A stretch of DNA of 64,000 nucleotides from positions 1 through 64,000 of IMG/VR virus record IMGVR_UViG_3300048855_000013. One strand, 5' to 3'. The DNA is from a virus. Below the pieces are notes generated by a model. That model made no database searches. It had not been told where the DNA came from and saw only the letters and a program-made list of their open reading frames with translations. The position numbers and the translations under genes are program-made. Shown one piece after another: positions 475 through 34,931 of the stretch (the first letter of the stretch is position 1; every line of letters begins with the position of its first letter).

Positions 475-1209
475 CTAGTAGATGCCGTAGTTCCAGTAGC
501 CTTGGTGAACCTCGATGAGGAACTCATTGATCTTATCATAGTCGGGAAGGTCAGGTGCATGGGTGCCATCCAACTCACTTAGCAGCAGACTCTCAGTTTC
601 AGAGAGGAGTCGCATCACATCATCGTAGCTGTAGGCACCGGCCCGAATGTTCTTGGCGATGTCGAGTGACCGACCAACCAGGGGGATACCTACATCCCCA
701 TTAGCCATGTACCTACGACCCTGCACACCGAGGCGATACGCATGGTAGGCGAACTTGATGTCGTAGCCGTGCTCTGCCTCTAGGTCGGGTCGCTTCTGCC
801 CTCGCTTGCCCTGTAGAGCGGCGATCTGGCTGTGCAGGTACCCGAGGTAGGCTCGGCCTGCTTTCTTGCTCCAGAAGATGTCTCGTGACAGGATGAGAGC
901 CTCTCCTATCTCAGATGTCACCTCGTACGTAGGAAGGTGCAGAAGAGAGCCAACGGTAGGGTTACCAGCAGCAGCGAGAGAGGCAAACTTACGCAGGGAG
1001 TGGTACGTAGTGTCGGACTCTCCTGCCTTGGACTTCTCGCCTTGGGCTGCGTCACTGACGCGCTTGGTTTCGTACTTGCCAAGACCAATCACTTCCTCTT
1101 CTGTCTCTAGAACGATCCCCATGTAGTCATGGTCACTGCTCTCGGTGGCAGTGCCCTGTGCGGTGGACCCATACTCACCGAGCAGGATCAGTAGATTATC
1201 TTGCATCAT
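475..1209 (-). CDS. Pol-beta superfamily nucleotidyltransferase (minimal NTase fold plus C-terminal domain)
   Basis: GS-x9-DHD motif (GSTAQGTATESSDHDYMGIV). Strong RBS AGGAGGTGACC upstream. ATGA overlap with the next gene. Confidence 0.5.
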   Translation of the reverse strand: MMQDNLLILLGEYGSTAQGTATESSDHDYMGIVLETEEEVIGLGKYETKRVSDAAQGEKSKAGESDTTYHSLRKFASLAAAGNPTVGSLLHLPTYEVTSEIGEALILSRDIFWSKKAGRAYLGYLHSQIAALQGKRGQKRPDLEAEHGYDIKFAYHAYRLGVQGRRYMANGDVGIPLVGRSLDIAKNIRAGAYSYDDVMRLLSETESLLLSELDGTHAPDLPDYDKINEFLIEVHQGYWNYGIY

Positions 1210-2273
1210 CGGTCACCTCCTTTGGGCTCCACCATAGCCCACACCTTTTCCCTGACATCCTTGCCCTGGCGCAGTGAGAACATGAATCCTCGAAGCTCAA
1301 GAGGAATGTGGCGCTGCACAGCCAGGGCGAACGTCTTCTGGTCAGGGTCAGGGTGACCCGCGTTGTCCAGCTGACGACGAAGGAACACCCACTCCTTATC
1401 GATGCGCGAAAGGTGGTTGAACACCTCCTCGTGCAGTTCATCGTAGACTTCCTCGGCCCACTTGTACAGTTCGTCGGGCAGTTGCGCAAGCATTGCCTCG
1501 TACTTGCCATCCTTGATGGCACGCCAAATGCTCTTGCGGTTCAGCCCTGTGACCACACGGTGTAGCTCCACATAGTCAGCCTGCTTGATCTTCACACCCT
1601 TGAACTCACTCGTCCACACTACCCAGCCCTCCGAGTTGGGACGGCTGAGGTTCTGAACGATGTCCTCGAACCCGATGCCATTCTGGTTGGAGAACGCAGG
1701 CACAGGAAGGTAGGCACCCGATGCCACATGGATGTATCCGAGTGGCTGGAGGAACTCTTGGTCATCATAGTTCAGGACGATGCGGTTCTCCGGGTAGATG
1801 ATTTCGAACAGCGGAGTGTAGCCACTGTCGATCCACTCGTCTGCCATGTACGCCTTGCCCGAGGCATGGAGAATCGATGTGCCCTTGACGGCTTGCTCTG
1901 AGTTGAAGCTGCCTCGCGTAGCGATGGCAGGCGTTCCGTTCGGGGTGCGGTACAAGATACCGAGCGAGCCGTCAAACTTGTTGCCATAGGCATAGAGCGG
2001 TGCCTTCCAGTCGAGGATGGCTGGTGCCTCTGCCTCATCCCAGTTGTGCATCTTGGCGAACGGACGTGCGAGCACATCCATTGTCTCCATGTTCACAATG
2101 AGTCCACGGCACAGACGGGTCGCAGCGTTCCACCGACGAGAGAACTGTGCCTCCGGGGTGTAGTTGTAGATCACATAGTGATCGTACAGCGGGTGGTGTC
2201 GGGCAGAGATGAACCCTGCCTCCACCTCAGCTGCCAGCAGATCAACGTCCACAATTTCATTCAGTTTAGTCAC
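1206..2273 (-). CDS. ATP-dependent RNA ligase, T4 Rnl1-like
   Basis: Motif I KFDGSLGILY and a downstream TRGSFNSEQA resemble T4 RnlA KEDGSLVSTY...KSKGSIKSEQA. GTG start with GGAGGTG RBS. Confidence 0.6.
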   Translation of the reverse strand: MTKLNEIVDVDLLAAEVEAGFISARHHPLYDHYVIYNYTPEAQFSRRWNAATRLCRGLIVNMETMDVLARPFAKMHNWDEAEAPAILDWKAPLYAYGNKFDGSLGILYRTPNGTPAIATRGSFNSEQAVKGTSILHASGKAYMADEWIDSGYTPLFEIIYPENRIVLNYDDQEFLQPLGYIHVASGAYLPVPAFSNQNGIGFEDIVQNLSRPNSEGWVVWTSEFKGVKIKQADYVELHRVVTGLNRKSIWRAIKDGKYEAMLAQLPDELYKWAEEVYDELHEEVFNHLSRIDKEWVFLRRQLDNAGHPDPDQKTFALAVQRHIPLELRGFMFSLRQGKDVREKVWAMVEPKGGDR

Positions 2274-2590
2274 AGGTAAATCACCTCCGGTCCTTTAGCT
2301 TTGTTTTCTTTGATCCGCGCGTTCCGCTCATCAATTTCTGCCCATCGGTTTTCGCTGTTCTCCTTGACATAAGCAGCACTCTGCATGATGTAACTCTTTG
2401 AGCCAGCGTATCGAAGTTCTCGCAACAGTCGTGGATGACTGATGATTCCAATGAACTCATCAGGATCATCGGAAGATGGAGTAATGGTGAGCTTCCACTC
2501 ACTCCAGTCAGGATTCTCACTGGCGTCCACTACAACGGGCGGCTCCGGTGTGCCTGGTGCTGGGTGAAACAGTGCGCTTAGAAACTTCAT
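2270..2590 (-). CDS. hypothetical protein
   Basis: ORF with internal ATG at 2590 preceded by GGAGGATTG. Overlaps the stop of the CCA-enzyme gene. Confidence 0.4.
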   Translation of the reverse strand: MKFLSALFHPAPGTPEPPVVVDASENPDWSEWKLTITPSSDDPDEFIGIISHPRLLRELRYAGSKSYIMQSAAYVKENSENRWAEIDERNARIKENKAKGPEVIYL

Positions 2591-3279
2591 CAATCCTCCA
2601 TCGTGGGCTTGAGCCACATGCCACTGCCTTTGAAGGCATAGTCACGTAACTCAGGGTAGTAGTTGTCGAGTAAATGGGCAGTGTAGGTAGTGTCATGCTT
2701 GAAGCACTTGTACAACTCCTCACGTACCCTTTCTATACTGACATTGGGCAGGTTGTCAAGCACACTCAGAGTTCTCAAAGCTCGATGTAGCTCAGAGGTG
2801 AAGGCAAACTCTTTCGTCACACGGAATCGGATAGCTCGGTACATACGTAGAGCATCCTCAGTGAACACCTCTTTGGGGTCACGCACAGTGCGCAGAACCA
2901 GAGCGTAGAGGTCACGCCGCCCGCCGAACGGATCAATGATTCTGCCGATCTCATCCTCGGCCATCGCGTTGACGGTGAAGTCTCGTCGTAGCAAGTCATC
3001 CATGAGGGTGCCTGGCTCTGTGCTGTCAGGACGACGACCGTCAGAGTAGTAGCCATCCTTGCGTGCGAGAACAAAGTCCCCAGCCTCGCCCGAAGAAAGC
3101 CGAGCGCGGATGGTTCCGTACTCTGGCTTTTCCAGAAAAATTTGGCTGATTTTTCCGCGCGTGAGCCAGTCTTTCATCTCGTCGTAGCTGTCGGCAATGA
3201 CCACATAGTCGAGGTCTTTGGGGCGCAGCCCGAGCAGCTTGTCTCGGACTGCACCCCCTACGAGAAACATCTCAGGCAT
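2590..3279 (-). CDS. cca: tRNA nucleotidyltransferase (class II CCA-adding enzyme, head domain)
   Basis: FLVGGAVRD...DLDYVV...RRDFTVNA signature of class II CCA/poly(A) polymerase head domain. RBS AGGAGGAAAAG. Confidence 0.7.
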   Translation of the reverse strand: MPEMFLVGGAVRDKLLGLRPKDLDYVVIADSYDEMKDWLTRGKISQIFLEKPEYGTIRARLSSGEAGDFVLARKDGYYSDGRRPDSTEPGTLMDDLLRRDFTVNAMAEDEIGRIIDPFGGRRDLYALVLRTVRDPKEVFTEDALRMYRAIRFRVTKEFAFTSELHRALRTLSVLDNLPNVSIERVREELYKCFKHDTTYTAHLLDNYYPELRDYAFKGSGMWLKPTMED

Positions 3280-3457
3280 TCTTTTCCTCCTGCATCATAT
3301 TGATAGCTTCTCTGAGTGCGATGTACCGGTCAATCTCCCTGTCACCTATGTGCATAGGACCAAGAAACCGTAACACGCTCTGTGTTTCAGCCAATGTGAA
3401 TCCCTGGGCAGCGCATATCATCGCTGCTATATCCAAGAATGTTACGAAGATGGGCAT
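3272..3457 (-). CDS. hypothetical small protein
   Basis: 61-aa ORF in operon context with weak RBS. Confidence 0.35.
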   Translation of the reverse strand: MPIFVTFLDIAAMICAAQGFTLAETQSVLRFLGPMHIGDREIDRYIALREAINMMQEEKNA

Positions 3458-4356
3458 TAGAAGTCACCGTAGGCGACCTGAAAGGCTGAGATGCCCTTGG
3501 CTCGCCACATATCGATCACTCGGTTGCGGTCATCGAGAACGAAGTCCACATACCAGTTGTCCTTGATGTGGTTCTCGAAAATCTCATCCTTCACGATGGC
3601 ATCGTTGCGAGTATCCTTAGGAGTACGCATGAAGATGCGGTCAAAGATCACCTCGTGCTTCTTGAGCCACTGCTTGAGCACCTCACGGTAGGCTCCGTCG
3701 CGGCCCGACACAATGATGATCTGCACACCCAGGAAGGCCATCTTGTTCACCAGATCACGGACAACCCAGTCAATGCTGTCATCGATGTACTTACTGGTGT
3801 CGTAGGGACCACGATTGGTCATGTGAGCCAGGGTACCATCGATGTCTACGATAATAGCGTGTGGCAGACCAATGGTGGGCTTGTACGGCTTGAAGAGGTC
3901 GCCCTCCAGAAGTTCAGGCACAGGGGGGAAGGTTCCGTTCTTGCCGAGCTTCTTGTTGTAGAAGTCCTCGACCACCTGTGCACCCACCTGTGGAGTGCGG
4001 ATGGCATCACGACGCAGCGCCTCAGGGAGAGGTATGGGGAAGTCCTTGAACTCCACCTCTGCGCCCTCGTAGAACGCGATCACGAGAAGCTCACGGACGG
4101 ACTTGGCGTTCAGGTTGGTGTTGTCCACCACCACGTCGTAGCCCTTGCCCAGGAACTTCTTGATCTGCTCGTTCTGTAGCTCGGTGACGAGCTTCTCGGG
4201 GACACCATATCCCTTGCCGAAGTGACCCCATCGAATATTGTCACGGTTGACACGAGCGCGGTGCTGCCCCTCAGGGGCGTCGAGCACCCACCGGGTTGCC
4301 CAGGTGCTCTTTCCAGAGGCAGGAATGCCTCGGGTGATGATTAGCTTGCGAGCCAT
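3457..4356 (-). CDS. pnk: polynucleotide kinase / 3'-phosphatase (T4 Pnk-like, bifunctional)
   Basis: N-terminal P-loop GIPASGKST and C-terminal HAD phosphatase motif IVDIDGTL. Start reassigned to the ATG at 4356 with a GGAGGAACT RBS. Confidence 0.7.
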   Translation of the reverse strand: MARKLIITRGIPASGKSTWATRWVLDAPEGQHRARVNRDNIRWGHFGKGYGVPEKLVTELQNEQIKKFLGKGYDVVVDNTNLNAKSVRELLVIAFYEGAEVEFKDFPIPLPEALRRDAIRTPQVGAQVVEDFYNKKLGKNGTFPPVPELLEGDLFKPYKPTIGLPHAIIVDIDGTLAHMTNRGPYDTSKYIDDSIDWVVRDLVNKMAFLGVQIIIVSGRDGAYREVLKQWLKKHEVIFDRIFMRTPKDTRNDAIVKDEIFENHIKDNWYVDFVLDDRNRVIDMWRAKGISAFQVAYGDF

Positions 4357-4463
4357 AGTTCCTCCGCTTCGTCGTCTAGTGTAAATTCTGTTACGTTCCA
4401 CCACTCTTCATCTCCAGCGATGAGAGCCATGAGTCTTGCTTCTGCCCCGTACACGATGTACAT
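4341..4463 (-). CDS. hypothetical small protein (40 aa)
   Basis: ATG with strong AGGAGGTATC RBS. Overlaps the pnk start. Below the ORF-track size cutoff. Confidence 0.3.
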   Translation of the reverse strand: MYIVYGAEARLMALIAGDEEWWNVTEFTLDDEAEELWLAS

Positions 4464-25452: not shown

Positions 25453-25695
25453 ATGGATCGGGAGATTAGAGATGTGATCATTGGAACCAGTGTGATGCTC
25501 TTCGGAGCATTTGCTCCACTCACGGTGGTTACTTTGCTCGGAATTCAGGTCTGGATCGGCCTTTTGCTCGCCGTTATCGTCACCGGAGTCGGTGTATGGA
25601 TGGTGGTAGACGCCTTTTTGCGCTATCGCTGGGTAGAGTTCAAGGAATTTGCACGGACTGCCATTGATGTATTTATGCCTAAGGGGGCCAATTGA
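25453..25695 (+). CDS. small membrane protein (2 TM)
   Basis: Hydrophobic helices. Confidence 0.45.
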   Translation: MDREIRDVIIGTSVMLFGAFAPLTVVTLLGIQVWIGLLLAVIVTGVGVWMVVDAFLRYRWVEFKEFARTAIDVFMPKGAN

Positions 25696-26249
25696 CAACT
25701 ATCGTCGCAGCTGAAATTGACGGTGAAGTGGTATGGGCTTGGGATTCCCAAGTGACGATGGGCGGCGAAGGCTCGGAACTGGAGTATGACAAGGTGTTCC
25801 ACAACGGCAGTGTCGTTGTGGGGCTCGCTGGGGCCATTGTGGACTCACAGACCTTCCGCTACACCGATCTTCCCGAGCTTGATACGTGGGATATCGACCG
25901 CTGGGTGACTGAGAAGCTCGCTAAGCGTGTCAAAAAGAAGACCAAGTACCACGGTGCTATCCTCGCGGAGGTTGGTGGCCGTGTCTACATCATCGGTCAG
26001 GAAGGCTCGTGGGTGCGTAACACCTCGGGAATCTATGCCATTGGCTCGGGAGCGGACTACGCTATGGGAGCTATGCTCAGTGGCGCTAGCCCCGGCCAGG
26101 CTGTGCTCGTTGCAGCGCAGCTGGACCTCGGCACAGGGGGCACTATCGTCATGGCGACCTCTAAGGAGATTCGCTCAGGGCATATTGCCTTCGATGAGGA
26201 GGAAGAGCCGAAGAAGGCCAAGAAGAAAAAGAAGGACAAGAAAAAGTGA
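25692..26249 (+). CDS. HslV-like Ntn-hydrolase (proteasome beta-type peptidase) with a C-terminal poly-Lys tail
   Basis: N-terminus MTTIVAAEIDGEVV (compare HslV MTTIVSVRRNGHVV, Thr1 nucleophile), YDKVF lysine, and YAIGSGADYA (compare IAIGSGGPYA). Tail KKAKKKKKDKKK. Confidence 0.6.
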   Translation: MTTIVAAEIDGEVVWAWDSQVTMGGEGSELEYDKVFHNGSVVVGLAGAIVDSQTFRYTDLPELDTWDIDRWVTEKLAKRVKKKTKYHGAILAEVGGRVYIIGQEGSWVRNTSGIYAIGSGADYAMGAMLSGASPGQAVLVAAQLDLGTGGTIVMATSKEIRSGHIAFDEEEEPKKAKKKKKDKKK

Positions 26250-26595: not shown

Positions 26596-26667
26596 TCCCC
26601 CGTAGCTCATTGGCAGAGCGGCAGGCCGTTAACCTGCGCGTACTTGGTTCGATCCCAGGCGGGGGAG
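26596..26667 (+). tRNA. tRNA-Asn (anticodon GTT) with unusual C33
   Basis: Manual cloverleaf: acceptor TCCCCCG/CGGGGGA, D GCTC/GAGC, AC GCAGG-CCGTTAA-CCTGC, T CTTGG-TTCGATC-CCAGG. Confidence 0.6.
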
Positions 26668-26732
26668 CGTTTGCTGGTTGCAGAGAAACCAGCTGGTTGT
26701 GGTTGTGAGTGATTCCCTTGTAAACTCTCGAT

Positions 26733-26809
26733 ACCGATTGTGTTCCCGTTGGACGGGAGGCGGCTTCCAAACCCGCTAAGCTATAGGGGTTCGATTCCTC
26801 CAGTCGGTG
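26733..26809 (+). tRNA. tRNA-like. Possible tRNA-Trp (CCA) with an irregular connector and variable region.
   Basis: Acceptor ACCGATT/AGTCGGT, T-arm AGGGG-TTCGATT-CCTCC, loop TTCCAAA. 77 nt. Confidence 0.3.
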
Positions 26810-27045
26810 CGACTTAGTGGCTACTAGTCACCAAAGGAGATGGCAGCGGGGCGCGACCAGTACCCAATAACGGGGCCACTAAGTTTTACTTGACAAAACC
26901 CAGTTCGTCTGGGAGAATGGTTACATGATGTTTGAACTTGATCTACACCTGGCGGCTTACCCCGCTTAGTAGTCGAGCCTACGCAAAATGTAGCCTTTGA
27001 CTCTCAGAGTCGGGGGCATTTTTTATAACTACACAGAGTACACAT

Positions 27046-27117
27046 GGGCCTGTGGCTTGATAGGGAAGCAGCACCTTTGCAAGGTGTTATATGGGGGTTC
27101 GAATCCCCTCGGGTCCA
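27046..27117 (+). tRNA. tRNA-Ala (TGC)
   Basis: Acceptor GGGCCTG/CGGGTCC, D GCTT/AAGC, AC GCACC-TTTGCAA-GGTGT, T GGGGG-TTCGAAT-CCCCT. Confidence 0.6.
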
Positions 27118-27188
27118 CGTAAGGTTCCGCTCAGATGGAGTAGCGGACGAAAGTAGCGGCAGATGGAGTTCGCTAGCCTCACTTACAT

Positions 27189-27262
27189 TGCGGGTTAGAC
27201 TGGAGGCGGTTCCAGCCAAGTCTCATAAGCTTAGGAGAGAGGTTCGATTCCTCTACCCGCAA
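27189..27262 (+). tRNA. tRNA-Met/fMet-like (CAT) with an atypical D region
   Basis: Acceptor TGCGGGT/ACCCGCA, AC CAAGT-CTCATAA-GCTTA, T AGAGG-TTCGATT-CCTCT. Confidence 0.4.
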
Positions 27263-27338
27263 CTACAGGTAGCCTACTATCCTCTGGCCTCGGGCCAGTC
27301 TGACCGCAGAAGCGGAAGGGAACAAATCAGTAGGATGA

Positions 27339-27413
27339 CTGGGTGTGGGGCAGTTGGTCAGCCTGCTTGATTTGGAATCAAGAGTATCGTGGGTTCGAAT
27401 CCCACCACCCAGA
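27339..27413 (+). tRNA. tRNA-Pro (TGG)
   Basis: Acceptor CTGGGTG/CACCCAG, AC CTTGA-TTTGGAA-TCAAG, T GTGGG-TTCGAAT-CCCAC. Confidence 0.65.
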
Positions 27414-27444
27414 CGGCGGGTGCCGCAATGGTAGACGGTGAGCG

Positions 27445-27537
27445 TAGTAAAGCACAGGGCAGATGTCCTAGGAAACCCCTCGTGCTTAGGGCGCGAAAAG
27501 TGACGACTAAGTACAGGTTCGAATCCTGTCCTGCTAA
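27445..27537 (+). tRNA. tRNA-like with a clear T-arm (ACAGG-TTCGAAT-CCTGT). The 5' half does not resolve. Possibly degenerate or type II.
   Basis: T-arm read directly. The best acceptor pairing is poor. Confidence 0.25.
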
Positions 27538-27554
27538 CGAAACAACTGAATATG

Positions 27555-27629
27555 GTGGCCGTAGCCCAAGCAGGTAGAGGCGGTGGACTGTGAATCCACT
27601 CAGTGCGAGTTCGATTCTCGTCGGTCACC
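27555..27629 (+). tRNA. tRNA-His (GTG) with encoded G-1 and C73
   Basis: Acceptor GTGGCCG/CGGTCAC, AC GTGGA-CTGTGAA-TCCAC, T GCGAG-TTCGATT-CTCGT. A G precedes the acceptor. Confidence 0.65.
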
Positions 27630-27652
27630 CGAAACAACTAAATAGAGAACTT

Positions 27653-27721
27653 GTGGTGGTAGGTGATACTGATACCTTGAAACTCAACCCTGTGGGATTC
27701 AATTCCTAAAAGGCCACCACA
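27653..27721 (+). tRNA. tRNA-like (69 nt). Perfect 7-bp acceptor GTGGTGG/CCACCAC but no canonical T-loop. Probably degenerate.
   Basis: Read directly. Confidence 0.3.
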
Positions 27722-27727
27722 ACATAT

Positions 27728-27799
27728 GCTCATGAAGCTGAATGGTTAAGCAGCACCCTGTCACGGTGTGTGTCGCCGGTTCGATCCCGGTCATGGGCG
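27728..27799 (+). tRNA. tRNA-Asp (GTC)
   Basis: Acceptor GCTCATG/CATGGGC, AC GCACC-CTGTCAC-GGTGT, T GCCGG-TTCGATC-CCGGT. Confidence 0.65.
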
Positions 27800-27803
27800 C
27801 TCT

Positions 27804-27876
27804 GGTCCCGTAGAGTAGCGGTTATCTCCCCTGATTCTCAATCAGGAAAACGTCGGTTCGAATCCGACCGGGATCA
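27804..27876 (+). tRNA. tRNA-Glu (CTC)
   Basis: Acceptor GGTCCCG/CGGGATC, AC CCTGA-TTCTCAA-TCAGG, T GTCGG-TTCGAAT-CCGAC. Confidence 0.65.
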
Positions 27877-27879
27877 CGC

Positions 27880-27907
27880 TTGACAAAAGTGTAAACTCGT
27901 GTAAACT
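27880..27907 (+). promoter_or_regulatory. promoter TTGACA-N16-TAAACT (same -10 as the 22.27 kb promoter)
   Basis: Read directly. Immediately upstream of the HNH gene. Confidence 0.45.
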
Positions 27908-27913
27908 AGAGGA

Positions 27914-28192
27914 ATGGTTTACACACGAGAGCAGCGCAAGGTCTATCAGGCAGAGTATCGTCGGAAGCGGCGAGATGAAGCCGTAGAGTATCTAGGCGGC
28001 ACGTGCGTCGTCTGCGGTACAACAGACCGGCTAGAAATCAACCATATTGATCCGCGCGAGAAGGCATTCAACCCTTCCCGTTTCTGGGGAAAGCTGGCAG
28101 ATTACTGGACAGAGATTGACAAGTGCAACCTTCTGTGCAAAGATCATCATGTAGAAGAAACAAGACGGCAGTACCGCGAGGGACTGCTATAA
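27914..28192 (+). CDS. HNH endonuclease embedded in the tRNA array
   Basis: CVVCG...EINHIDP...CNLLCKDHH. Confidence 0.6.
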   Translation: MVYTREQRKVYQAEYRRKRRDEAVEYLGGTCVVCGTTDRLEINHIDPREKAFNPSRFWGKLADYWTEIDKCNLLCKDHHVEETRRQYREGLL

Positions 28193-28264
28193 CTCTCCGT
28201 TGGGTAGGTTACCTGGCGCTGGCCGTAACCCAGTAGCCTGAGACTTCGAGTGTTTCCGGGGAGA
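28193..28264 (+). tRNA. tRNA with probable anticodon GTA (Tyr-type, class I length) and a short D-loop
   Basis: Acceptor CTCTCCG/CGGGGAG, AC GCTGG-CCGTAAC-CCAGT, T GAGAC-TTCGAGT-GTTTC. Confidence 0.4.
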
Positions 28265-28396
28265 CGCAACACAAGAGGGACTCAGCGCCTACGACCAGCT
28301 GAATACAGGATCACGACCCCACCGTGCGGCCTACGCTCTAGCAGCGTAAGCTGAACACATTGTTCCCCACCCTCCTCCGGGATTGGTGGGGCATTT

Positions 28397-28468
28397 GCCC
28401 TCAGAGCTTTGCAGGTAAAGCGCCTGGCTGAAACCCAGGAGTCATCGGTTCAAAACCGGTTGAGGGCA
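28397..28468 (+). tRNA. tRNA-Phe (GAA)
   Basis: Acceptor GCCCTCA/TGAGGGC, D GCTT/AAGC, AC CCTGG-CTGAAAC-CCAGG, T ATCGG-TTCAAAA-CCGGT. Confidence 0.7.
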
Positions 28469-28530
28469 CAGGGAATCATAACCTTGTCAGTTCAAAACAA
28501 CCCTACAAAAGATTCAGGGAACTGTCGTAT

Positions 28531-28616
28531 GGCCTAGTGGTGAAATTTGGTATACGCACTGCGCTTAGAACGCAGCGCCTTCGGGCATGTCGGTTCGATC
28601 CCGACCTGGGCTACCA
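28531..28616 (+). tRNA. tRNA-Leu (TAG), type II, CCA encoded
   Basis: Acceptor GGCCTAG/CTGGGCT-A-CCA, AC CTGCG-CTTAGAA-CGCAG, variable-arm hairpin GCC-TTCG-GGC, T GTCGG-TTCGATC-CCGAC. Confidence 0.7.
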
Positions 28617-28618
28617 TT

Positions 28619-28776
28619 TGACAAACAAGAAAAAGTATGGGAAGATTGATTCATGAACGTAACGCAGGGAACCACAAGTAAGCGAGGCCAGTCGGTCATC
28701 GTGTCCTTTGTGGTCCTCTAATAACAGTTCCTGTTATCACACCGACCCTCTTGACACCGCCAGGAGGGTCTTTTTT
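28619..28776 (+). other. promoter-like TTGACA, then a 22-codon mini-ORF, then a rho-independent terminator (GACCCTC...GAGGGTC + T6). The cassette sits inside the tRNA array.
   Basis: Read directly. Terminator stem at 28744..28770 with T-run to 28776. Confidence 0.35.
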
Positions 28777-28778
28777 AT

Positions 28779-28863
28779 GGCGTGTAAAGCTCTAATGGTT
28801 GGGCACTAGTCTTGAAAACTAGGGGTCGGGAAACCGGCAGGGGTTCGATTCCTCTGCGCGCCG
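28779..28863 (+). tRNA. tRNA-Ser (TGA), type II
   Basis: Acceptor GGCGTGT/GCGCGCC, AC CTAGT-CTTGAAA-ACTAG, variable-arm hairpin GTCGG-GAAA-CCGGC, T AGGGG-TTCGATT-CCTCT. Confidence 0.65.
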
Positions 28864-28902
28864 CTTGTTCAGGAACACTGAACTGAACGAAAAACTGAAC
28901 AT

Positions 28903-28987
28903 GGCTAGTAAACCGTGAAGGTCACGGACCTCCCTGCTAAGGAGCGTGCTCGGGAAACCGGGTGGGAATCGTTCTCTCTGCTAGCCG
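28903..28987 (+). tRNA. tRNA-Ser (GCT)-like, type II, with a truncated T-loop (GGGAA-TCG-TTCTC). Possible pseudogene.
   Basis: Acceptor GGCTAGT/GCTAGCC perfect. AC loop CTGCTAA. Confidence 0.35.
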
Positions 28988-29000
28988 CGCAACACACTAA

Positions 29001-29072
29001 CCCCTTGTAGCTCAGAAGCAGAGCAGGCGGCTCTTACCCGTCGGGCCGGGATGGCAGAATTCCCCAGGGGGA
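29001..29072 (+). tRNA. tRNA-Lys (CTT)-like with a non-canonical T-loop (GGCAGAA)
   Basis: Acceptor CCCCTTG/CAGGGGG, D GCTC/GAGC, AC GGCGG-CTCTTAC-CCGTC. Confidence 0.4.
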
Positions 29073-29088
29073 CGTAACAACTAAATAT

Positions 29089-29162
29089 GGGACATATGCC
29101 GATATGGTGCGGCGTCAGGCTTCCACCCTGAAATAGAGCGAGTTCGAGCCTCGCATGTCTCT
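29089..29162 (+). tRNA. tRNA-Gly (TCC)
   Basis: Acceptor GGGACAT/ATGTCTC, D GCCG/CGGC, AC TCAGG-CTTCCAC-CCTGA, T GCGAG-TTCGAGC-CTCGC. Confidence 0.65.
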
Positions 29163-29166
29163 CTTT

Positions 29167-29235
29167 CGTCCTCGCATCGGCATGCAACCGAACTTTACAC
29201 GTTTGGTCTACAGGGTTCGACACCCTGGGGGACGA
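29167..29235 (+). tRNA. tRNA-Val (TAC)-like, 69 nt with a shortened D-arm
   Basis: Acceptor CGTCCTC/GGGGACG, AC CGAAC-TTTACAC-GTTTG, T CAGGG-TTCGACA-CCCTG. Confidence 0.4.
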
Positions 29236-29267
29236 CAATGGTATTACGTCCATTCAAAACGTAGTTG

Positions 29268-29340
29268 TGCCCCTATAGCTTAATGGGCAAAGCATGTGTC
29301 TTGTAAACACAAGTCAGGAGTTCGAATCTCCGTGGGGGCT
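29268..29340 (+). tRNA. tRNA-Thr (TGT)
   Basis: Acceptor GCCCCTA/TGGGGGC, D GCTT/AAGC, AC TGTGT-CTTGTAA-ACACA, T AGGAG-TTCGAAT-CTCCG. Confidence 0.65.
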
Positions 29341-29386
29341 CTGTGCAACTTTTATGGTAACACCGATTACAACAATAACTAAACAT

Positions 29387-29460
29387 GCCGCTATAGCTCA
29401 GCAGGACAGAGCAGATGCCTACGAAGCATCGTGTCGGGGGTTCGAATCCCTCTAGCGGCA
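29387..29460 (+). tRNA. tRNA-Arg (ACG)
   Basis: Acceptor GCCGCTA/TAGCGGC perfect, D GCTC/GAGC, AC GATGC-CTACGAA-GCATC, T GGGGG-TTCGAAT-CCCTC. Confidence 0.7.
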
Positions 29461-29521
29461 CAATAGAGAGTGTGCAGCCCGGTAGGATGGACGCATAAGA
29501 TGAAACCGCACTCCTAGATTT

Positions 29522-29592
29522 ACCCGATTAGTGTAACGGCAACACGTCTGACTCTGAATCAGATAGTCTTGGTTCGAATCCAGGATCGGGTG
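29522..29592 (+). tRNA. tRNA-Gln (CTG)
   Basis: Acceptor ACCCGAT/ATCGGGT perfect, D GTGT/ACAC, AC TCTGA-CTCTGAA-TCAGA, T CTTGG-TTCGAAT-CCAGG. Confidence 0.7.
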
Positions 29593-29637
29593 CGTTAGAA
29601 TAGACTTATCGAGCGATAAGTCAAGTGTAATGTACAT

Positions 29638-29708
29638 ACCGGGTAAAGACACTGGCCGTCTAGCGCTCTTTTAAAGCGTGAGAAGGAGTTCGATTCTCCT
29701 ATCCGGTA
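29638..29708 (+). tRNA. tRNA-Lys (TTT)
   Basis: Acceptor ACCGGGT/ATCCGGT, D AGAC/GTCT, AC GCGCT-CTTTTAA-AGCGT, T AGGAG-TTCGATT-CTCCT. Confidence 0.7.
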
Positions 29709-29712
29709 CTGT

Positions 29713-29784
29713 GCCGATGTGGCTGAATGGTTCAGGCAGCGGATTGCAAACCCGCGTACTCCGGTTCGATCCCGGACTTCGGCT
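29713..29784 (+). tRNA. tRNA-Cys (GCA)
   Basis: Acceptor GCCGATG/CTTCGGC (one T-T mismatch), AC GCGGA-TTGCAAA-CCCGC, T TCCGG-TTCGATC-CCGGA. Confidence 0.55.
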
Positions 29785-29788
29785 CTTT

Positions 29789-29855
29789 CCCGCTAGTCGT
29801 GGATGCACGAGGGTGTTCTAAGCCTAGAGTCTCGGTTCGATTCCGAGTAGTGGGA
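29789..29855 (+). tRNA. tRNA-Arg (TCT)-like, 67 nt with a 4-nt D-loop
   Basis: Acceptor CCCGCTA/TAGTGGG, D CGTG-GATG-CACG, AC AGGGT-GTTCTAA-GCCTA, T CTCGG-TTCGATT-CCGAG. Confidence 0.35.
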
Positions 29856-29871
29856 CTCATATTGGAGGAAT

Positions 29872-30561
29872 ATGACGAACGTTATGGTGGCTACCCCTGC
29901 TTATGGGGGCCAAGTCACAGAGCCTTACCTACAGTCGATGCTGAATCTGGTCTTCGAGTCTCACCGACTCGGCTTCAAGATCAACGTTCACACGCTGACA
30001 GGTGAGTCCCTCATCACGAGGGCACGCAACAACATGCTCCACACCTTCCTATCGCAGCCTGAGTACGATCAGCTACTGTGGATTGACTCGGATATCGGGT
30101 TTGCTCCACTCAATGCTCTTCGACTCATCCATAGTGAGCACGAGGTCACAGCAACACCTTACCCTCTCAAAGCTATCTGGTGGGATGCAGTGGCAGGTAG
30201 CACTGCTGCGGAGAAGCAACTCAGTGGCAAGCACTATGTGGTCAATCGGATCGGTGACGAGAAGGATGAAAACGGCTTCTCTGAGGTCATGGATGCTGGC
30301 ACCGGGTTCATGTGCATCAAGCGATCAGCCCTAGAGAAGATGATTGATGCTTATCCTGAGCTACAGTACACGTCAGATGGCAACAATCACAACGAAGACG
30401 AAGACCGTAAGCGCTACCTGTTCTTCGACACTATGGTAGACGATGGGCGTTATCTCTCCGAGGACTACGCCTTCTGCCGTCGCTGGCAGAGAATCGGTGG
30501 TAAGGTCATGCTGGACATGAGTGCACCGCCGCTCCGACACTTCGGAAACTACGCCTACTAG
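29872..30561 (+). CDS. putative GT-A fold glycosyltransferase (DxD-type) embedded in the tRNA array
   Basis: LWIDSDIGF DxD-like motif. N-terminal MVATPAYGG. RBS GGAGGAAT. Confidence 0.4.
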   Translation: MTNVMVATPAYGGQVTEPYLQSMLNLVFESHRLGFKINVHTLTGESLITRARNNMLHTFLSQPEYDQLLWIDSDIGFAPLNALRLIHSEHEVTATPYPLKAIWWDAVAGSTAAEKQLSGKHYVVNRIGDEKDENGFSEVMDAGTGFMCIKRSALEKMIDAYPELQYTSDGNNHNEDEDRKRYLFFDTMVDDGRYLSEDYAFCRRWQRIGGKVMLDMSAPPLRHFGNYAY

Positions 30562-30568
30562 GCGTTAT

Positions 30569-30642
30569 TGGCAATAGCTCAGCTGGTTGCTGAGGGCAAC
30601 CTGATAAGCTGCTTGAGGTGGGTTCGATCCCCGCATTGCCAA
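30569..30642 (+). tRNA. tRNA-Ile (GAT)
   Basis: Acceptor TGGCAAT/ATTGCCA perfect, D CTCA/TGAG, AC GCAAC-CTGATAA-GCTGC, T GTGGG-TTCGATC-CCCGC. Confidence 0.65.
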
Positions 30643-30654
30643 CTCTCTGTGAAT

Positions 30655-31776: not shown

Positions 31777-33387
31777 GTGACGACTACGTTCAACTCTTCA
31801 CTGCTCGATGCAGCGAAGCTCATGAAGCGCAATGCCCGAGCGAAGCGCTACGCTGTTGACCCTGTGATGTGGGCCGAAGATGTTCTCGGTATCCAGCTGT
31901 GGAGCAAGCAGAAGGAAATTCTGCGGTCGCTGGTGACTAACAAGCGCACCGCTGTCAAGTCCTGCCACTCCATCGGTAAGACCATCATCTGTGCTGTAGC
32001 TTCTGCGTGGTGGGTATCGACCCGTTATGACGCAATGGTGCAGTCCACAGCGCCGACGTACCAGCAGGTACACGAGCAGCTGTGGGAGGCGATTCGCAAG
32101 TTCCACCTGGAGAGCGACCTAACTGGCCGCGTCACTCTGGGTGACGAGTGGTTGATCCCTATCCATAAGGATGGGCGTCAGAAGGACATCCTGGTCGGCG
32201 TGGGTAAGAAGCCCGCTGACTCAAACATCCACGGCTTCCACGGTACTCACCGCCCCGGCGGTGTGCTTGCTATCCTCGATGAGGGCTGCGGTCTGCACGT
32301 ATCAATCTTCACGGGTGCTGAGGCCATCACCACGGCTCCACAGGACCGCATTCTGACTACGGGAAACCCTGACGATCCGAACACTGAGTTTGGGCGCATC
32401 TTCCGCGAAGCTGACAGCGAGTGGAACCTGATCACTGTGTCAGCGTATGACACCCCTCACTTCACTGGTGAAGATGAGCAGATCATGGAGCTTGCACGTC
32501 AACTGGACGCGGCTATCCCTGAGGCTGATCGCGACCCCGAGAACCCTAACCCGAACACCAAGGCAGCCGAAGCTCTTCTAGAGGGTATGCCTAACCCCGA
32601 GTGGATCGCCTCTCGTGCCCGAGACTGGGGTGAGGAGTCTCCGCGATTCATCTCGAAGGTTCTCGCCCAGTTCCCGCTTACGTCAATCGATAGCCTCTTC
32701 ACTGCGGCAGAGATTGAAACAGGCCGTAATTCAGTCATCGAGCCCACTCCGAGCGCCTTCAAGACACTCGGCGTTGACGTTGCCCGTTACGGATCGGACA
32801 AAAGTGTGGTAGTATTGAACGTTGAGGGACATATAGAAGTTCTTGCAGCGTTCTCTACAATGGACACCATGCAGGTTGCCGCTCAGGTTCACAAGCTTGC
32901 TCTAGAGCACAAGGTGGATCAGGTTCGCGTCGATGGTATTGGTGTCGGTGGTGGTGTGGTTGACCGCCTCGTGTCACTTTCACGCTCTGTAGACGAACCA
33001 TACATCGTGGTCGAAATGATCGCGAACGCCAGCCCGCCTGACCGTACACTCCACCGTAACTCTCGTGCCTACTGGTATGACTCGGTGAAGTACCAGCTGG
33101 CTAATGACCTCATCGATTTGCCGGATGGACCTCTCGGTAGTGATGCAGCTAAGCTGCTCCAGGAGATGACCGGCATCAAGTATTCATACCCTAACGGTAT
33201 CATGCAGATCGAGTCTAAGGAAGACATTCGCCGTCGCGGCGACAAGTCTCCTGACTACGTTGATGCTCTCGTACTAGCCTGTGCGCCGATCAATTATCTC
33301 CAGAACGACCCTCTAGCCAATATGCGACCAGGGCAGATGGTGGAGATTGACGTTCTCAGTCAGGTAGAAGAAGTCAGCCCGTACTAA
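31777..33387 (+). CDS. terL: terminase large subunit
   Basis: Walker A-like KSCHSIGKT, Walker B LAILDEG, C-terminal nuclease region. 536 aa. Confidence 0.8.
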   Translation: MTTTFNSSLLDAAKLMKRNARAKRYAVDPVMWAEDVLGIQLWSKQKEILRSLVTNKRTAVKSCHSIGKTIICAVASAWWVSTRYDAMVQSTAPTYQQVHEQLWEAIRKFHLESDLTGRVTLGDEWLIPIHKDGRQKDILVGVGKKPADSNIHGFHGTHRPGGVLAILDEGCGLHVSIFTGAEAITTAPQDRILTTGNPDDPNTEFGRIFREADSEWNLITVSAYDTPHFTGEDEQIMELARQLDAAIPEADRDPENPNPNTKAAEALLEGMPNPEWIASRARDWGEESPRFISKVLAQFPLTSIDSLFTAAEIETGRNSVIEPTPSAFKTLGVDVARYGSDKSVVVLNVEGHIEVLAAFSTMDTMQVAAQVHKLALEHKVDQVRVDGIGVGGGVVDRLVSLSRSVDEPYIVVEMIANASPPDRTLHRNSRAYWYDSVKYQLANDLIDLPDGPLGSDAAKLLQEMTGIKYSYPNGIMQIESKEDIRRRGDKSPDYVDALVLACAPINYLQNDPLANMRPGQMVEIDVLSQVEEVSPY

Positions 33388-33398
33388 GAAAGGCCCGC

Positions 33399-34931
33399 AT
33401 GGCTAACGCACTACAGCGTATGTTCCGTCCGAACTACGTGGAGAAGCTCGAAGAGAGCCAGGCTACTGTAACGACCCTGCGTCATGAAGTTCTGGCCCTT
33501 GACTCTGAGCGTATGACGCTGCGTGAGTCTCTCACTGACCTTATGCGTTTTGTTGAGGATGTGGGCTGGGAGAAGATCGAGGGGTTCGAGCAGGACAAGG
33601 GTATGACCCTTGATGCTATCAAGAAGAACTCTGAGGTTCTACGCTCGATGCTGACTGCTAACCCTACCATCAAGAAGGCAATCAACGCTCGCGTTGGTTA
33701 CATCTGGGGACGCGGTGTCACATTCAAGGGATCGGGAACGAAGCAGTTCACCGAGAACCCATGGAATGAGCGCGTCCTGTTTGATGACTCTGCGCACTGG
33801 CGCATCGAGGCACAGCTAGCCACAGACGGAAACATCTGGGCTGCCAAGAGCGGTGGCGAGGTCACTATGATCCCCATTGAGCAGATTGCTGGCTGGGTAA
33901 CCGACCCGAACAATCCCACTCGTGTGCATTACTGGCTGCGCTCCTACACCGTTATCGAGAAGAACTTCTCCAACGGTGTTGAGGCTGCTAAGCACATCGA
34001 GGTCTTCTACCCTGCTTCTGACTACACCGGCAACAAGGTGGGGTCCATCGACGGCATCAAGGTAGACCGCAGCACGACGATGGTACATCTAGCTGCCAAT
34101 CGTCAGGAGGGTTGGCTCCTTGGTGTGCCAGACCTGTTCGCTGCGATGTTCTGGACAAAGGCTCACAAGGAGCTATTCGAGGCCGGTACGCAGTACGTAA
34201 AGGCTCAGGGTAAGTTCGCCTCGAAGGTCATCTCAAAGACCGCCAACGGGGCTACAAACGCCGCTGCGCGTATCGCTGACGTTGCTCGCCGCGACCCCGT
34301 GACCGGCGAGGTTATGGACGCTGCCGGTACTGCCGTCATGTCTGGTGGTCTTGACTATCAGCTGATGGGCAAGATGTCGAGTGGCGTGGACTTCTCCGCG
34401 TTCGATCCGGTAGCTGGACTCATCGCCGCTGGCCTGGGGGTCCCTGTGCGCGTCCTACTGGGCGACTCCGACACCGAGGAGAAGAGCCTAGAGCAGAGCA
34501 CAGTCGATGAGATGGTGCTGCGTCAGAAGCTCTGGAGCTACTTCTTCAAGAGCCTCATGGGACCGGCCAAGATCGAGGTGCTATTCCCCAAGCTCAAGAC
34601 TGAGCCTGAGTACCGTCGTATGCAGTCCGTTGAGATTGCCAACAAGACCAACGTCCTGCACCGCGAGGAGCTTCGACAGCTGACTCTTGATGGCTTCGGT
34701 ATCATCGGTGATCCTAACGACCTGCCTGAGATTGAAGAGCAGCCTGATGTTGCTATCGCTAAGGCGAAGGGCGACGACGCATTCGAGCACGCAGAGGTAC
34801 TAGCCGACAAGGCAGCCGCTGCGCAGTCCACACCCGAGCAGGGCAAGGACGCTGGAGTGGGCAAGCTGAGCACCGGCAAGGACCGAAACGCGGCTCGTGA
34901 CGACAAGGGCGACAAAACTGTAAAGCGCTAA
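33399..34931 (+). CDS. portal protein
   Basis: 510 aa, directly after terL. Acidic C-terminus. Confidence 0.65.
   Translation: MANALQRMFRPNYVEKLEESQATVTTLRHEVLALDSERMTLRESLTDLMRFVEDVGWEKIEGFEQDKGMTLDAIKKNSEVLRSMLTANPTIKKAINARVGYIWGRGVTFKGSGTKQFTENPWNERVLFDDSAHWRIEAQLATDGNIWAAKSGGEVTMIPIEQIAGWVTDPNNPTRVHYWLRSYTVIEKNFSNGVEAAKHIEVFYPASDYTGNKVGSIDGIKVDRSTTMVHLAANRQEGWLLGVPDLFAAMFWTKAHKELFEAGTQYVKAQGKFASKVISKTANGATNAAARIADVARRDPVTGEVMDAAGTAVMSGGLDYQLMGKMSSGVDFSAFDPVAGLIAAGLGVPVRVLLGDSDTEEKSLEQSTVDEMVLRQKLWSYFFKSLMGPAKIEVLFPKLKTEPEYRRMQSVEIANKTNVLHREELRQLTLDGFGIIGDPNDLPEIEEQPDVAIAKAKGDDAFEHAEVLADKAAAAQSTPEQGKDAGVGKLSTGKDRNAARDDKGDKTVKR

Follow-up and report, generated by a model that had tools for sequence, protein, structure and literature searches.

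Does a phage that carries a dense array of transfer RNA (tRNA) genes make use of all of them, even of those that depart so far from the usual cloverleaf that standard detectors miss or underscore them? This question is raised by positions 1 to 64,000 of the IMG/VR virus record IMGVR_UViG_3300048855_000013, the whole stretch of DNA analysed here and hereafter called the window, which represents a siphovirus-like phage (G+C content about 54%) with a terminase gene at 31777-33387 and a portal gene at 33399-34931. Its tRNA array spans 26596-30643, exclusively on the plus strand, and comprises 23 tRNA genes representing all 20 amino acids, together with two tRNA-like inserts, X1 (27415-27538) and X2 (27653-27721). 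A first-pass annotation had listed several structurally aberrant tRNA-like genes at 27189-29855 and offered pseudogenes, decoys for anticodon nucleases, tRNAs built to escape host tRNases, or processing scaffolds as possible explanations. All of the aberrant elements that it listed are present in the array. The reading that we favour, with a probability of roughly 0.55, is that the odd tRNAs are functional and that their elbows and D-arms have been remodelled to evade host tRNA-directed enzymes. The genes in question, two of which (Met and Trp) were not on the first-pass list, are the following:

26596-26668, plus strand: tRNA-Asn(GTT), canonical fold with C33 (loop CCGTTAA); ARAGORN 114.4, Rfam 50.9 bits
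26733-26810, plus strand: tRNA-Trp(CCA), 78 nt; ARAGORN 102.8
27189-27263, plus strand: tRNA-Met(CAT), odd D-arm; ARAGORN 106.7
28193-28265, plus strand: tRNA-Tyr(GTA), 73 nt; ARAGORN 98.2, relaxed settings only
28903-28988, plus strand: tRNA-Ser(GCT), A54 T-loop; ARAGORN 82.3, relaxed settings only
29001-29073, plus strand: tRNA-Lys(CTT), T-loop GGCAGAA; recognised by hand and by homology
29167-29236, plus strand: tRNA-Val(TAC), 70 nt, compact D-hairpin; ARAGORN 100.1
29789-29856, plus strand: tRNA-Arg(TCT), 68 nt; ARAGORN 95.5, relaxed settings only; Rfam 22.3 bits

Whether such shapes are maintained can be judged from relatives, which were gathered by protein searches and contig look-ups. 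All of them are uncultured except Curtobacterium phage Yappy (PQ868972), the closest cultured relative, whose terminase is 62% identical and whose annotated tRNA genes follow the order seen in the window. When cultured phages were searched with the array DNA itself, megablast gave no match and sensitive blastn matched single tRNAs only. The uncultured loci, with their protein identity to the window where it was taken, are:

L029+L024: a single circular Logan contig, terminase 81%
L025: terminase 79%
L027: first seven tRNAs only, HslV-like neighbour gene 82%
L033, L034 and L035: terminase 68-69%
L001 and L002: terminase 65%
L031 and L032: short metagenome contigs, found via the Arg-TCT pattern

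The array comparison leaves out L003 and 76 more distant terminase relatives, which were too divergent; in L114, L115 and L116 the array lies outside the stretch or is a reduced canonical array. The order Asn-Trp-Ala-Met-Pro-His-Asp-Glu-Tyr-Phe-Leu-Ser-Ser-Lys-Gly-Val/Thr-Arg-Gln-(Lys)-Cys-Arg-Ile is shared with Yappy, L001, L002, L025, L029+L024, L033, L034 and L035, and the odd genes occupy particular places in it. The aberrant Tyr gene is the only source of tRNA-Tyr in the array, the Val gene with its miniature D-hairpin, missed by Rfam, is the only source of tRNA-Val, and the AGY and AGR codons are read in the array by Ser-GCT and Arg-TCT alone. Val, Arg-TCT, Tyr and Ser-GCT are canonical in Yappy and in other more distant relatives, so the odd forms were derived inside the sub-clade and have been maintained there.

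Covariation was evaluated in N-padded, hand-made alignments of five to six related sequences per family (manual because MAFFT placed a gap wrongly in the Val acceptor stem), with pair counts taken without phylogenetic correction. Four families were treated in this way, namely Val, Arg-TCT, Tyr, and the Lys/Val group with a U53.U61 T-stem. In none of them did any of 500 shuffles reach the observed pairing, and slid controls left at most 59% of the cells paired. The acceptor, anticodon and T stems paired and covaried among orthologues, as in canonical tRNAs, with 95-99% of the cells paired and 7-19 pairs changed on both sides.

The truncated D-arm that had been noted for Val proved to be a miniature hairpin, GCAT-CGGC-ATGC, which abuts the acceptor stem and has no G18-G19. 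The same compact hairpin is found in L024, L025 and L033, its complementary stems varying among GCAT/ATGC, GTTC/GAAC, GCTT/AGGC and GCGC/GCGC, while in L032 and L034 a 13-nt connector stands in its place. Across the window, L024, L025, L032, L033 and L034, 96% of the cells of the Val cloverleaf were paired (slid controls at most 52%) and 19 of 22 pairs had changed on both sides. Val appears to have a reduced D region rather than none; its 4-bp hairpin covaries and keeps a 3-4-nt loop lacking GG. Similarly, only 14 nt separate the acceptor and anticodon stems of Arg-TCT, which has a 4-bp anticodon stem. The intervening nucleotides can be folded as CGTG-GATG-CACG, so that the 4-nt D-loop proposed earlier holds as a possible fold. 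The connector measures 12-14 nt in L024, L025, L031, L032 and L034, where it forms no consistent stem and keeps a TGGA motif, and it too is best described as reduced rather than armless. The Arg-TCT family had 99% of the cells paired and both-side changes in 7 of 16 pairs.

Tyr-GTA combines a short, class-I-like variable region with C1-G72, C53-G61, the T-loop TTCGAGT and, as had been noticed before, C33 in the loop CCGTAAC. Short Tyr genes of 70-73 nt, mostly with C1-G72, also occur in L025, L033, L034 and L035 (95% of the cells paired, both-side changes in 14 of 17 pairs), while Yappy, L001 and L029 carry a Tyr gene with the usual long variable arm. As a separate observation, C1-G72, A73 and the short variable region occur together in the window, L025, L033 and L035, a combination that resembles the archaeal and eukaryotic identity set for Tyr and not the bacterial one.

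The T-loop of Ser-GCT is abnormal, but not in the way first described. In place of a loop reduced to TCG, it is better read as a 4-bp stem, GGGA/TCTC, closing a 7-nt loop, ATCGTTC (A54; A53-U61). The orthologue that lies across the L029/L024 junction retains only this 7-nt-loop fold (T-loop ATCGTGC), and its acceptor stem, anticodon stem and variable arm carry compensated changes; the 3-nt loop was accordingly rejected. For Lys-CTT, the GGCAGAA T-loop (G54 G55 C56 A57 G58) was found as described, accompanied by a U53.U61 mismatch and the D-loop AGAAGCA (A18 G19). Its orthologue in L025 (7030-7101) is 93% identical, the highest value of all window-L025 tRNA pairs; the T-arm is identical, including the GGCAGAA loop, and a T6-A67 pair has become C6-G67 by compensation. 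The Lys/Val family with the U53.U61 T-stem had 97% of the cells paired and both-side changes in 14 of 20 pairs. An exact 17-mer from the Lys-CTT T-arm, searched in IMG/VR, gave 19 matches in unrelated contigs, consistent with chance.

Met has a 4-nt linker and a CTGG/CCAG D-stem. It scored below the gathering threshold of the Rfam tRNA model RF00005, its best model being tRNA-Sec (24.5 bits), and it is identical in L027, while its type of D-arm recurs in L029 with an altered anticodon stem. Trp has a 3-nt linker after the acceptor stem and an 8-nt variable loop, with tRNA-Sec again as the top Rfam model (33.6 bits), and is 100% identical in L027. Taken over the array, the invariants of the elbow and of position 33 are broken in Lys-CTT (A18 with G54 G55), Ser-GCT (A54), Val (no GG in its 4-nt D-loop), and Asn and Tyr (C33), while C56 is retained in all five.

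The elbow shows coupled changes. In Lys-CTT the D-loop reads AGAAGCA against AGAGGCA in relatives with a canonical loop, that is, G18 has become A18 where U55 has become G55. The same coupling is seen across the clade: among tRNAs with G55, 11 of 12 have AG instead of GG in the D-loop (the twelfth is ambiguous), against GG in 207 of 211 tRNAs with T55 (Fisher p = 1e-14), where the D-loop was scored for the presence of GG in the loop as defined by ARAGORN and not by position-by-position alignment. These G55 tRNAs span seven isoacceptor families (Phe, Lys-TTT, Gly, Cys, Ile, Arg-TCT and Lys-CTT) in six phages. Both positions differ together between orthologues as well, as in Ile, with CTAGTTG and TGCAGTC in L025 vs CTGGTTG and TTCGATT in L024, and likewise in Lys-TTT of L034 vs L035. 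An independent sample of 316 tRNAs from 34 further phage loci, most of which are distant relatives at best and which include contigs from the 17-mer search, repeated the pattern, with GG lacking in 13 of 16 tRNAs with G55 and present in 281 of 287 with T55. Furthermore, in 9 of 17 cases A54 comes together with T58, which amounts to a swapped 54-58 pair. In total, U54-U55 is missing from 36 of 226 clade tRNAs (16%), the array of L035 contributing none (0 of 24). Since G55 is accompanied by A18, the L-shaped elbow is probably preserved, and the co-changes at 18-55 and 54-58 show an elbow geometry that appears still to be selected and not relaxed. A limited search of the accessible literature found no description of covariation between positions 18 and 55.

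Two observations on Lys-TTT genes may be added. Yappy carries an unannotated Lys-TTT gene (L004 9691-9763, corresponding to PQ868972.1 9779-9851), which occupies precisely the space left between the annotated Gln and Cys genes and has an elbow of the A18/G55 type, with the D-loop AGACAGCG and the T-loop TGCATGT; an AAAGA...TCTAGCG D-arm is common to it and to Lys-TTT of the window. The anticodon-stem pairs 28-42 and 29-41 are mismatched in Lys-TTT of L025 (7645-7717), L033 (8543-8617), L034 (8575-8647), L035 (3444-3516) and L002 (3346-3418), as tandem U.U in L033, L034 and L035, while the stem is fully paired in the window. These mismatches adjoin the site at which AriB of the PARIS system cuts the tRNA-Lys of E. 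coli (between nucleotides 40 and 41).

The C33 changes are of another kind. In Asn the change is present as had been claimed, at a gene (26596-26668) that falls outside the interval 27189-29855 to which it had been assigned; compared with the L027 orthologue, 2 of 73 positions are changed, including T33 to C33. In Tyr, C33 is found in the window only, L025 having T33. Among 227 clade tRNAs, C33 occurs in 4 of 37 with a GUN anticodon (Asn and Tyr of the window, His of L034 and Asp of L025) and in 4 of 190 others, an enrichment that is suggestive only (one-sided Fisher p = 0.026). To judge from the orthologues, C33 in Asn and Tyr is a recent, window-specific point substitution of uncertain effect, and such changes may be mildly deleterious polymorphisms or adaptive. 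Glu-TTC of Yappy (L004 8182-8254) and of L034 (7022-7094) has the anticodon loop ACTTCAC, with A32 and C33.

The phage also encodes enzymes that could act on tRNAs. About 22 kb from the array, on the opposite strand, lies a cluster for RNA repair and maturation (478-4404), identified by Pfam matches and containing:

3460-4404, minus strand: Pnkp, Pfam HAD_PNKP (3.4e-47) and AAA_33 (6e-15); 46% identical to the 'polynucleotide kinase' of Yappy
2593-3279, minus strand: class II nucleotidyltransferase (PolyA_pol head), candidate CCA-adding enzyme, PF01743 (1.1e-22), GGAVRD...DLD motif
1209-2273, minus strand: T4 Rnl1-family RNA ligase, RNA_lig_T4_1 (2.4e-13); 44% identical to the 'RNA ligase' of Yappy
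478-1209, minus strand: RlaP, RNA-repair-pathway nucleotidyltransferase, PF10127 (7e-21)

The gene content of the T4-type repair pathway, Pnkp plus an Rnl1-family ligase, is thus present, with activities predicted from Pfam. The cluster also holds an open reading frame (ORF) of 115 amino acids of no recognised kind; the CCA-adding-like enzyme is short (229 amino acids) and was not found in the examined parts of the relatives. In regard to decoding, the anticodons of the array match the codon use of the phage, in which GTA makes up 18% of Val codons, CTA 16% of Leu, AAG 90% of Lys, CAG 91% of Gln and AGY 38% of Ser.

Considering conservation, covariation in the stems and in the tertiary pair, synteny and codon fit together, we conclude with fairly high confidence that the flagged genes other than X1 and X2 are selected and are most likely functional non-canonical tRNAs. 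According to the model that we propose, the syntenic set shared by this clade of actinobacteriophage-like siphoviruses, in which every amino acid has one tRNA or more, would contain Val, Arg-TCT, Tyr, Ser-GCT, Lys-CTT, Met and Trp as working tRNAs of lineage-specific, non-canonical architecture. Selection would keep their acceptor, anticodon and T stems intact despite the altered D-arm, the altered variable region of Tyr and the loss of U54/U55. They would be transcribed from promoters inside the array, excised from polycistronic precursors and provided with CCA by a host or phage nucleotidyltransferase; host synthetases would then charge them for the reading of phage codons. The odd elbows would at the same time escape host enzymes that recognise the TΨC loop or elbow, alongside repair by the phage Pnkp and Rnl1. 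Expression, aminoacylation, decoding and nuclease resistance of these tRNAs are presumed here from their sequences, and evasion is suggested by the positions that have changed, by the repair genes and by the published requirement of a nuclease.

More tentatively, and as a possibility rather than an expectation, the covarying elbow could be the central device. An alternative, self-consistent elbow (A18-G55 or A54-U58) would remove U54-U55 together with the T54/Ψ55 modification sites and keep the L-shape. It could recur in unrelated tRNA-rich phages for the invisibility it might confer to defences directed at the T-loop or elbow, such as prokaryotic Schlafen nucleases. The compact D-arm of Val, the D-stem-less Arg-TCT and the short C1-G72 Tyr could be further steps of the same escape.

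Several points weigh against functional, evading tRNAs. The comparison behind evasion is with the universal consensus U54-U55 and with the requirement of one published nuclease only, and loss of U54/U55 could equally mean relaxed constraint or independence of TrmA/TruB modification. The canonical genes of Yappy and the distant relatives indicate that the array does not require the oddities. The alignments were fitted by hand to the cloverleaf, which biases the pair counts towards it. Conservation of GGCAGAA comes from one close pair, with five differences in 72 nt, so that zero differences in the loop is not significant alone. Finally, a typical bacterial tyrosyl-tRNA synthetase would be expected to accept a short Tyr with C1-G72 only poorly.

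Neutral relaxation of constraint is the serious rival to evasion, although on balance we hold it to be unlikely. The tRNAs would be functional and their deviations tolerated drift, permitted by brief action, high copy number and back-up from host tRNAs, with constraint on the D-arm and T-loop relaxed and no host nuclease involved. It would account for deviations of many kinds scattered across isoacceptors and phages, for the L035 array in which every tRNA keeps U54-U55, for the apparent dispensability of the odd forms, as shown by the canonical Yappy versions, and for the weakness of the C33 enrichment. It is less easily reconciled with the co-changes at 18-55 and 54-58, which show elbow geometry under selection, with the recurrence of the same alternative elbow in unrelated phages, with changes that fall exactly on the two T-loop bases required by a known defence nuclease, and with the investment of the phage in tRNA repair genes.

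If the aberrant elements were pseudogenes, that is, decaying functionless copies of tRNAs, they would be expected to score poorly, and they do. ARAGORN at default settings reported 18 tRNAs in the array, and the Rfam tRNA model at its gathering score (29 bits for RF00005) 15, including an Asp gene missed by default ARAGORN. A lowered ARAGORN threshold added Tyr-GTA, Ser-GCT, Arg-TCT and a Leu-TAG-like element (X1), and Lys-CTT was missed by both programs. When the aberrant genes were rescored in sub-windows of 216-351 nt (E<=10), there was no RF00005 match at Tyr, Ser-GCT, Lys-CTT, Val or X2, and Arg-TCT, Met and X1 remained below threshold, while the other 16 genes passed, including Lys-TTT at 43.9 bits. 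Covariance-model scoring thus places the flagged genes far from the tRNA consensus. Non-detection in the large Rfam runs is not taken as evidence, because Lys-TTT was lost there to speed filters alone, which makes such runs unreliable for absence. Decay could also be read from the T33 of the nearest orthologues of Asn and Tyr, and from X1 and X2. However, Val, Arg-TCT, Tyr, Ser-GCT and Lys-CTT are unlikely to be pseudogenes, because relatives keep the same odd forms together with compensatory stem changes; had they been decay products, canonical versions would be expected in these relatives, and it is the odd forms that the sub-clade keeps. With Met and Trp included, the shared oddities, compensatory stem changes and compensated tertiary pair contradict decay, and so do the rank of Lys-CTT as the best-conserved tRNA between window and L025 and the way in which odd genes fill otherwise empty slots of a conserved set for 20 amino acids. 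As a general explanation, pseudogenes are therefore improbable.

For the two inserts the balance differs, and decay or non-function is the most likely reading, as there are no homologues and the scores are below threshold:

27415-27538, plus strand: X1 insert, 124 nt, window-specific; low-threshold ARAGORN 98.4
27653-27721, plus strand: X2 insert, 69 nt, window-specific, tRNA-like fold

In X1 the T-arm is canonical, the anticodon arm is Leu-TAG-like, the acceptor stem is weak and a D-stem is lacking. Its segment 27432-27537 scored 16.3 bits with the Rfam tRNA model (E=1.6), and its fold is no better than that of shuffled sequence (z-score -0.13). The earlier description of a T-arm-only element at 27445-27537 was right in that little apart from a canonical T-arm is present, while the true inserted unit is 27415-27538. 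X2, described before as having a perfect acceptor but no T-loop, indeed combines a perfect acceptor stem of 7 bp with a D-like hairpin of 5 bp; a linker of 11 nt stands where the anticodon arm would be, and the pseudo-T hairpin has the 6-nt loop TTCAAT (fold z-score -2.07). It gave no ARAGORN or Rfam match. Reading the X2 hairpin as an anticodon arm (UCA) was tried and rejected, as it lies 15 nt from the D-arm and leaves out the T-arm.

X1 is absent from L027, L025, L029, Yappy, L001 and L002, where the gap between Pro and His is 1-16 nt. The L027 spacers measure 16 nt (Pro-His) and 15 nt (His-Asp), so that X1 and X2 are insertions relative to L027, and the conserved spacer motif described below is still recognisable beside both. 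Gapped-pattern searches of IMG/VR found no homologues of either insert, and BLAST against 12 related loci and all array tRNAs returned generic T-arm matches only. The absence of both from all relatives fits a pseudogene or a recent import. Their neighbouring tRNAs are 88-100% identical to those of L027, which leaves too little time for decay in place from normal tRNAs, so X1 and X2 probably arrived in their present form, and they are probably recent tRNA-derived insertions that most likely do not decode.

It could also be proposed that the odd tRNAs are decoys or sponges, titrating host anticodon nucleases or tRNA-binding defence proteins with no role in translation. Alteration affects the body of these tRNAs, their anticodon stem-loops being mostly canonical, X2 presents a perfect acceptor stem with no anticodon arm, and the repair genes show that the phage is exposed to tRNA-directed attack. 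We nevertheless regard such a role as quite improbable: Tyr, Val, AGY-Ser and AGR-Arg are represented in the array by the odd genes alone, as would suit decoding more than decoy duty, the anticodons track phage codon use, and the compensated elbow suggests a selected L-shape that fits the ribosome and other tRNA-binding partners. Least probable is that the tRNA-like elements, X1 and X2 in particular, have no other role than to separate the transcripts of the array as cleavage signals for RNase P/RNase Z, given that both inserts are flanked by tRNAs which are already processing sites, that relatives manage with 1-16-nt spacers and that neither insert is conserved, even if X2 retains an acceptor stem and a T-like hairpin, a combination resembling a minimal RNase P/Z substrate, and the array carries internal promoters, terminators and small ORFs. 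Nothing specific was found in favour of either the decoy or the scaffold role that had been put forward.

The remaining members of the array, including two of the ORFs that interrupt it, are as follows:

27046-27118, plus strand: tRNA-Ala(TGC), canonical; Rfam 56 bits
27339-27414, plus strand: tRNA-Pro(TGG), canonical; Rfam 64.9 bits
27554-27630, plus strand: tRNA-His(GTG), canonical, G-1 encoded; ARAGORN and Rfam
27728-27800, plus strand: tRNA-Asp(GTC), canonical; Rfam 55.4 bits; ARAGORN relaxed only; identical in L027
27804-27877, plus strand: tRNA-Glu(CTC), canonical; ARAGORN and Rfam
27914-28192, plus strand: HNH-like ORF of 92 amino acids, between Glu and Tyr
28397-28469, plus strand: tRNA-Phe(GAA); ARAGORN and Rfam
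28531-28616, plus strand: tRNA-Leu(TAG), CCA encoded; ARAGORN and Rfam
28779-28864, plus strand: tRNA-Ser(TGA); Rfam 32.7 bits; ARAGORN
29089-29163, plus strand: tRNA-Gly(TCC); Rfam 31 bits; ARAGORN
29269-29341, plus strand: tRNA-Thr(TGT); ARAGORN and Rfam
29387-29461, plus strand: tRNA-Arg(ACG); Rfam 65.9 bits; ARAGORN
29522-29593, plus strand: tRNA-Gln(CTG); ARAGORN and Rfam
29638-29709, plus strand: tRNA-Lys(TTT), 3-bp D-stem, otherwise normal; ARAGORN 103, Rfam 43.9 bits (small window)
29713-29785, plus strand: tRNA-Cys(GCA); ARAGORN and Rfam
29872-30561, plus strand: glycosyltransferase-like ORF of 229 amino acids, within the array; weak Glyco_transf_21 match (E=0.003)
30569-30643, plus strand: tRNA-Ile(GAT); Rfam 31.1 bits; ARAGORN

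The 92-amino-acid ORF has HNH-like motifs (CxxC...NHID...CKDHH), a promoter-like site at 27880 and no Pfam match, and it ends exactly where Tyr starts; L025 lacks it, the Glu and Tyr genes there being separated by 18 nt, and it is probably a homing-endonuclease insertion. At the site of the glycosyltransferase-like ORF, L024 and L025 carry genes of 231 amino acids. Just upstream of the array, at 25692-26249, lies a gene for an HslV/proteasome-like peptidase with a lysine-rich tail, which is kept in L025, L027 and L029.

The array is also interrupted by a pair of cassettes consisting of a promoter, a micro-ORF and a terminator. The one between Trp and Ala (26890-27035) has the promoter-like sequence TTGACA-17-GAGAAT, a 14-codon ORF encoding MMFELDLHLAAYPA and a strong terminator hairpin. 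L025 (5385-5540) has the same cassette, with the peptide MNEMFAYELHLAADPA; it could act on the downstream tRNAs as a leader or attenuator, or it could be a small RNA. The other, between Leu and Ser-TGA (28617-28778), has a TTGACA box, a 22-codon ORF (28654-28722) and a terminator (28744-28770 plus a T-run). The non-coding stretch after Tyr (28266-28396; L025 6292-6450), which contains the conserved blocks GCAACACAAGAGGG, CTACAGGAT and CTAGCAGCGTAAGCT, may represent a structured RNA. Its last element in the window is a G+C-rich hairpin with only three T behind it, and this hairpin went unreported in the terminator scan.

The 70-nt spacer between Ala and Met holds two tandem hairpins (27126-27176) with the common loop CAGATGGAGT, where the L027 spacer is 4 nt long. 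As a motif of the whole window this loop was rejected, with 10 matches against 7.8 expected, and it reflects a local duplication. A spacer motif, (A/G)CAACAACT(A/G)AATAT, lies directly upstream of several tRNAs (27540-27553, 27631-27644, 29073-29088 and 29372-29386), as well as in L027 and L025, and may be a processing or duplication signature.

How does this array compare with known systems? In its general plan it resembles other actinobacteriophage arrays, such as those of Yappy and of the mycobacteriophage cluster C1, with more than 20 tRNA genes on one strand between the early genes and the terminase and anticodons that favour phage codons (PMC10264068). It differs in that the sub-clade of the window fills the Val, Arg-TCT, Tyr, Ser-GCT and Lys-CTT slots with genes that standard detectors miss or underscore. 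Standard pipelines would consequently under-count phage tRNAs, the unannotated Lys-TTT of Yappy being an example. Structural reduction itself is known from the D-arm-reduced tRNAs of metazoan mitochondria, from tRNA-Sec and from tRNA-Pyl (PMC7609411), which share with the window genes a short or stem-less D region, a length of 68-70 nt and intact acceptor, anticodon and T stems, with Val also lacking G18-G19. The window tRNAs are, however, encoded by a bacterial virus and would depend on bacterial partners for which no adaptation to such shapes is known, and their D region is reduced, Arg-TCT keeping TGGA; the review of structurally reduced tRNAs makes no mention of phages (PMC7609411). In one recent paper all known bacterial tRNAs are stated to be canonical (PMC11551756). 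If the odd tRNAs are charged and used, bacterial translation would tolerate much less canonical tRNAs than is usually assumed.

The repair genes are comparable to T4 Pnkp and Rnl1, which counter PrrC. The window encodes a Pnkp with kinase and HAD phosphatase domains and an Rnl1-family ligase, clustered with RlaP and the CCA-adding-like enzyme, as a candidate repair system. The tRNA cluster of T4 also encodes small stable RNAs, species 1 and 2, which do not decode and have acceptor-like termini. These RNAs, which are flanked by tRNAs, are the nearest analogy for X1 and X2, drawn from general resemblance; homologues of X1 and X2 themselves were not detected.

Current explanations of phage tRNA arrays invoke codon supply and anticodon-loop escape from anticodon nucleases, to which phage tRNA repair genes are the classical answer (PMC10264068). 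The tRNA-Lys of T5 escapes PARIS AriB, which cuts between positions 40 and 41, via a sequence change (PMC11464382), and anticodon-loop variants of phage tRNAs are predicted to evade nucleases by van den Berg et al. 2023 (PMC10264068). The window would be alike in having isoacceptors altered at a possible nuclease site, with decoding presumably kept, and it has repair genes alongside. Whereas the documented changes are in the anticodon stem-loop, those of the window are in the elbow (54/55 and 18) and the D-arm. The array thus suggests a second layer in the tRNA body, in which D-arms and T-loops are remodelled yet maintained and a tertiary pair, 18-55, is changed on both sides in many independent tRNAs and phages.

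Relevant to this second layer is Cash, a prokaryotic Schlafen nuclease which cleaves the T-loop of tRNAs at UUC and whose cleavage is abolished by a single mutation of U54 or U55 (PMC13462974, 2026). Cash needs U54 and U55, and Lys-CTT (G54 G55), Ser-GCT (A54) and 16% of the clade tRNAs lack this dinucleotide. The enzyme in that work was from Chloroflexi and the tRNAs were those of E. coli, and its authors call the targeting of phage tRNAs an open question (PMC13462974). The tRNAs of the window offer a direct way into whether T-loop-cleaving nucleases spare those of phages (PMC13462974).

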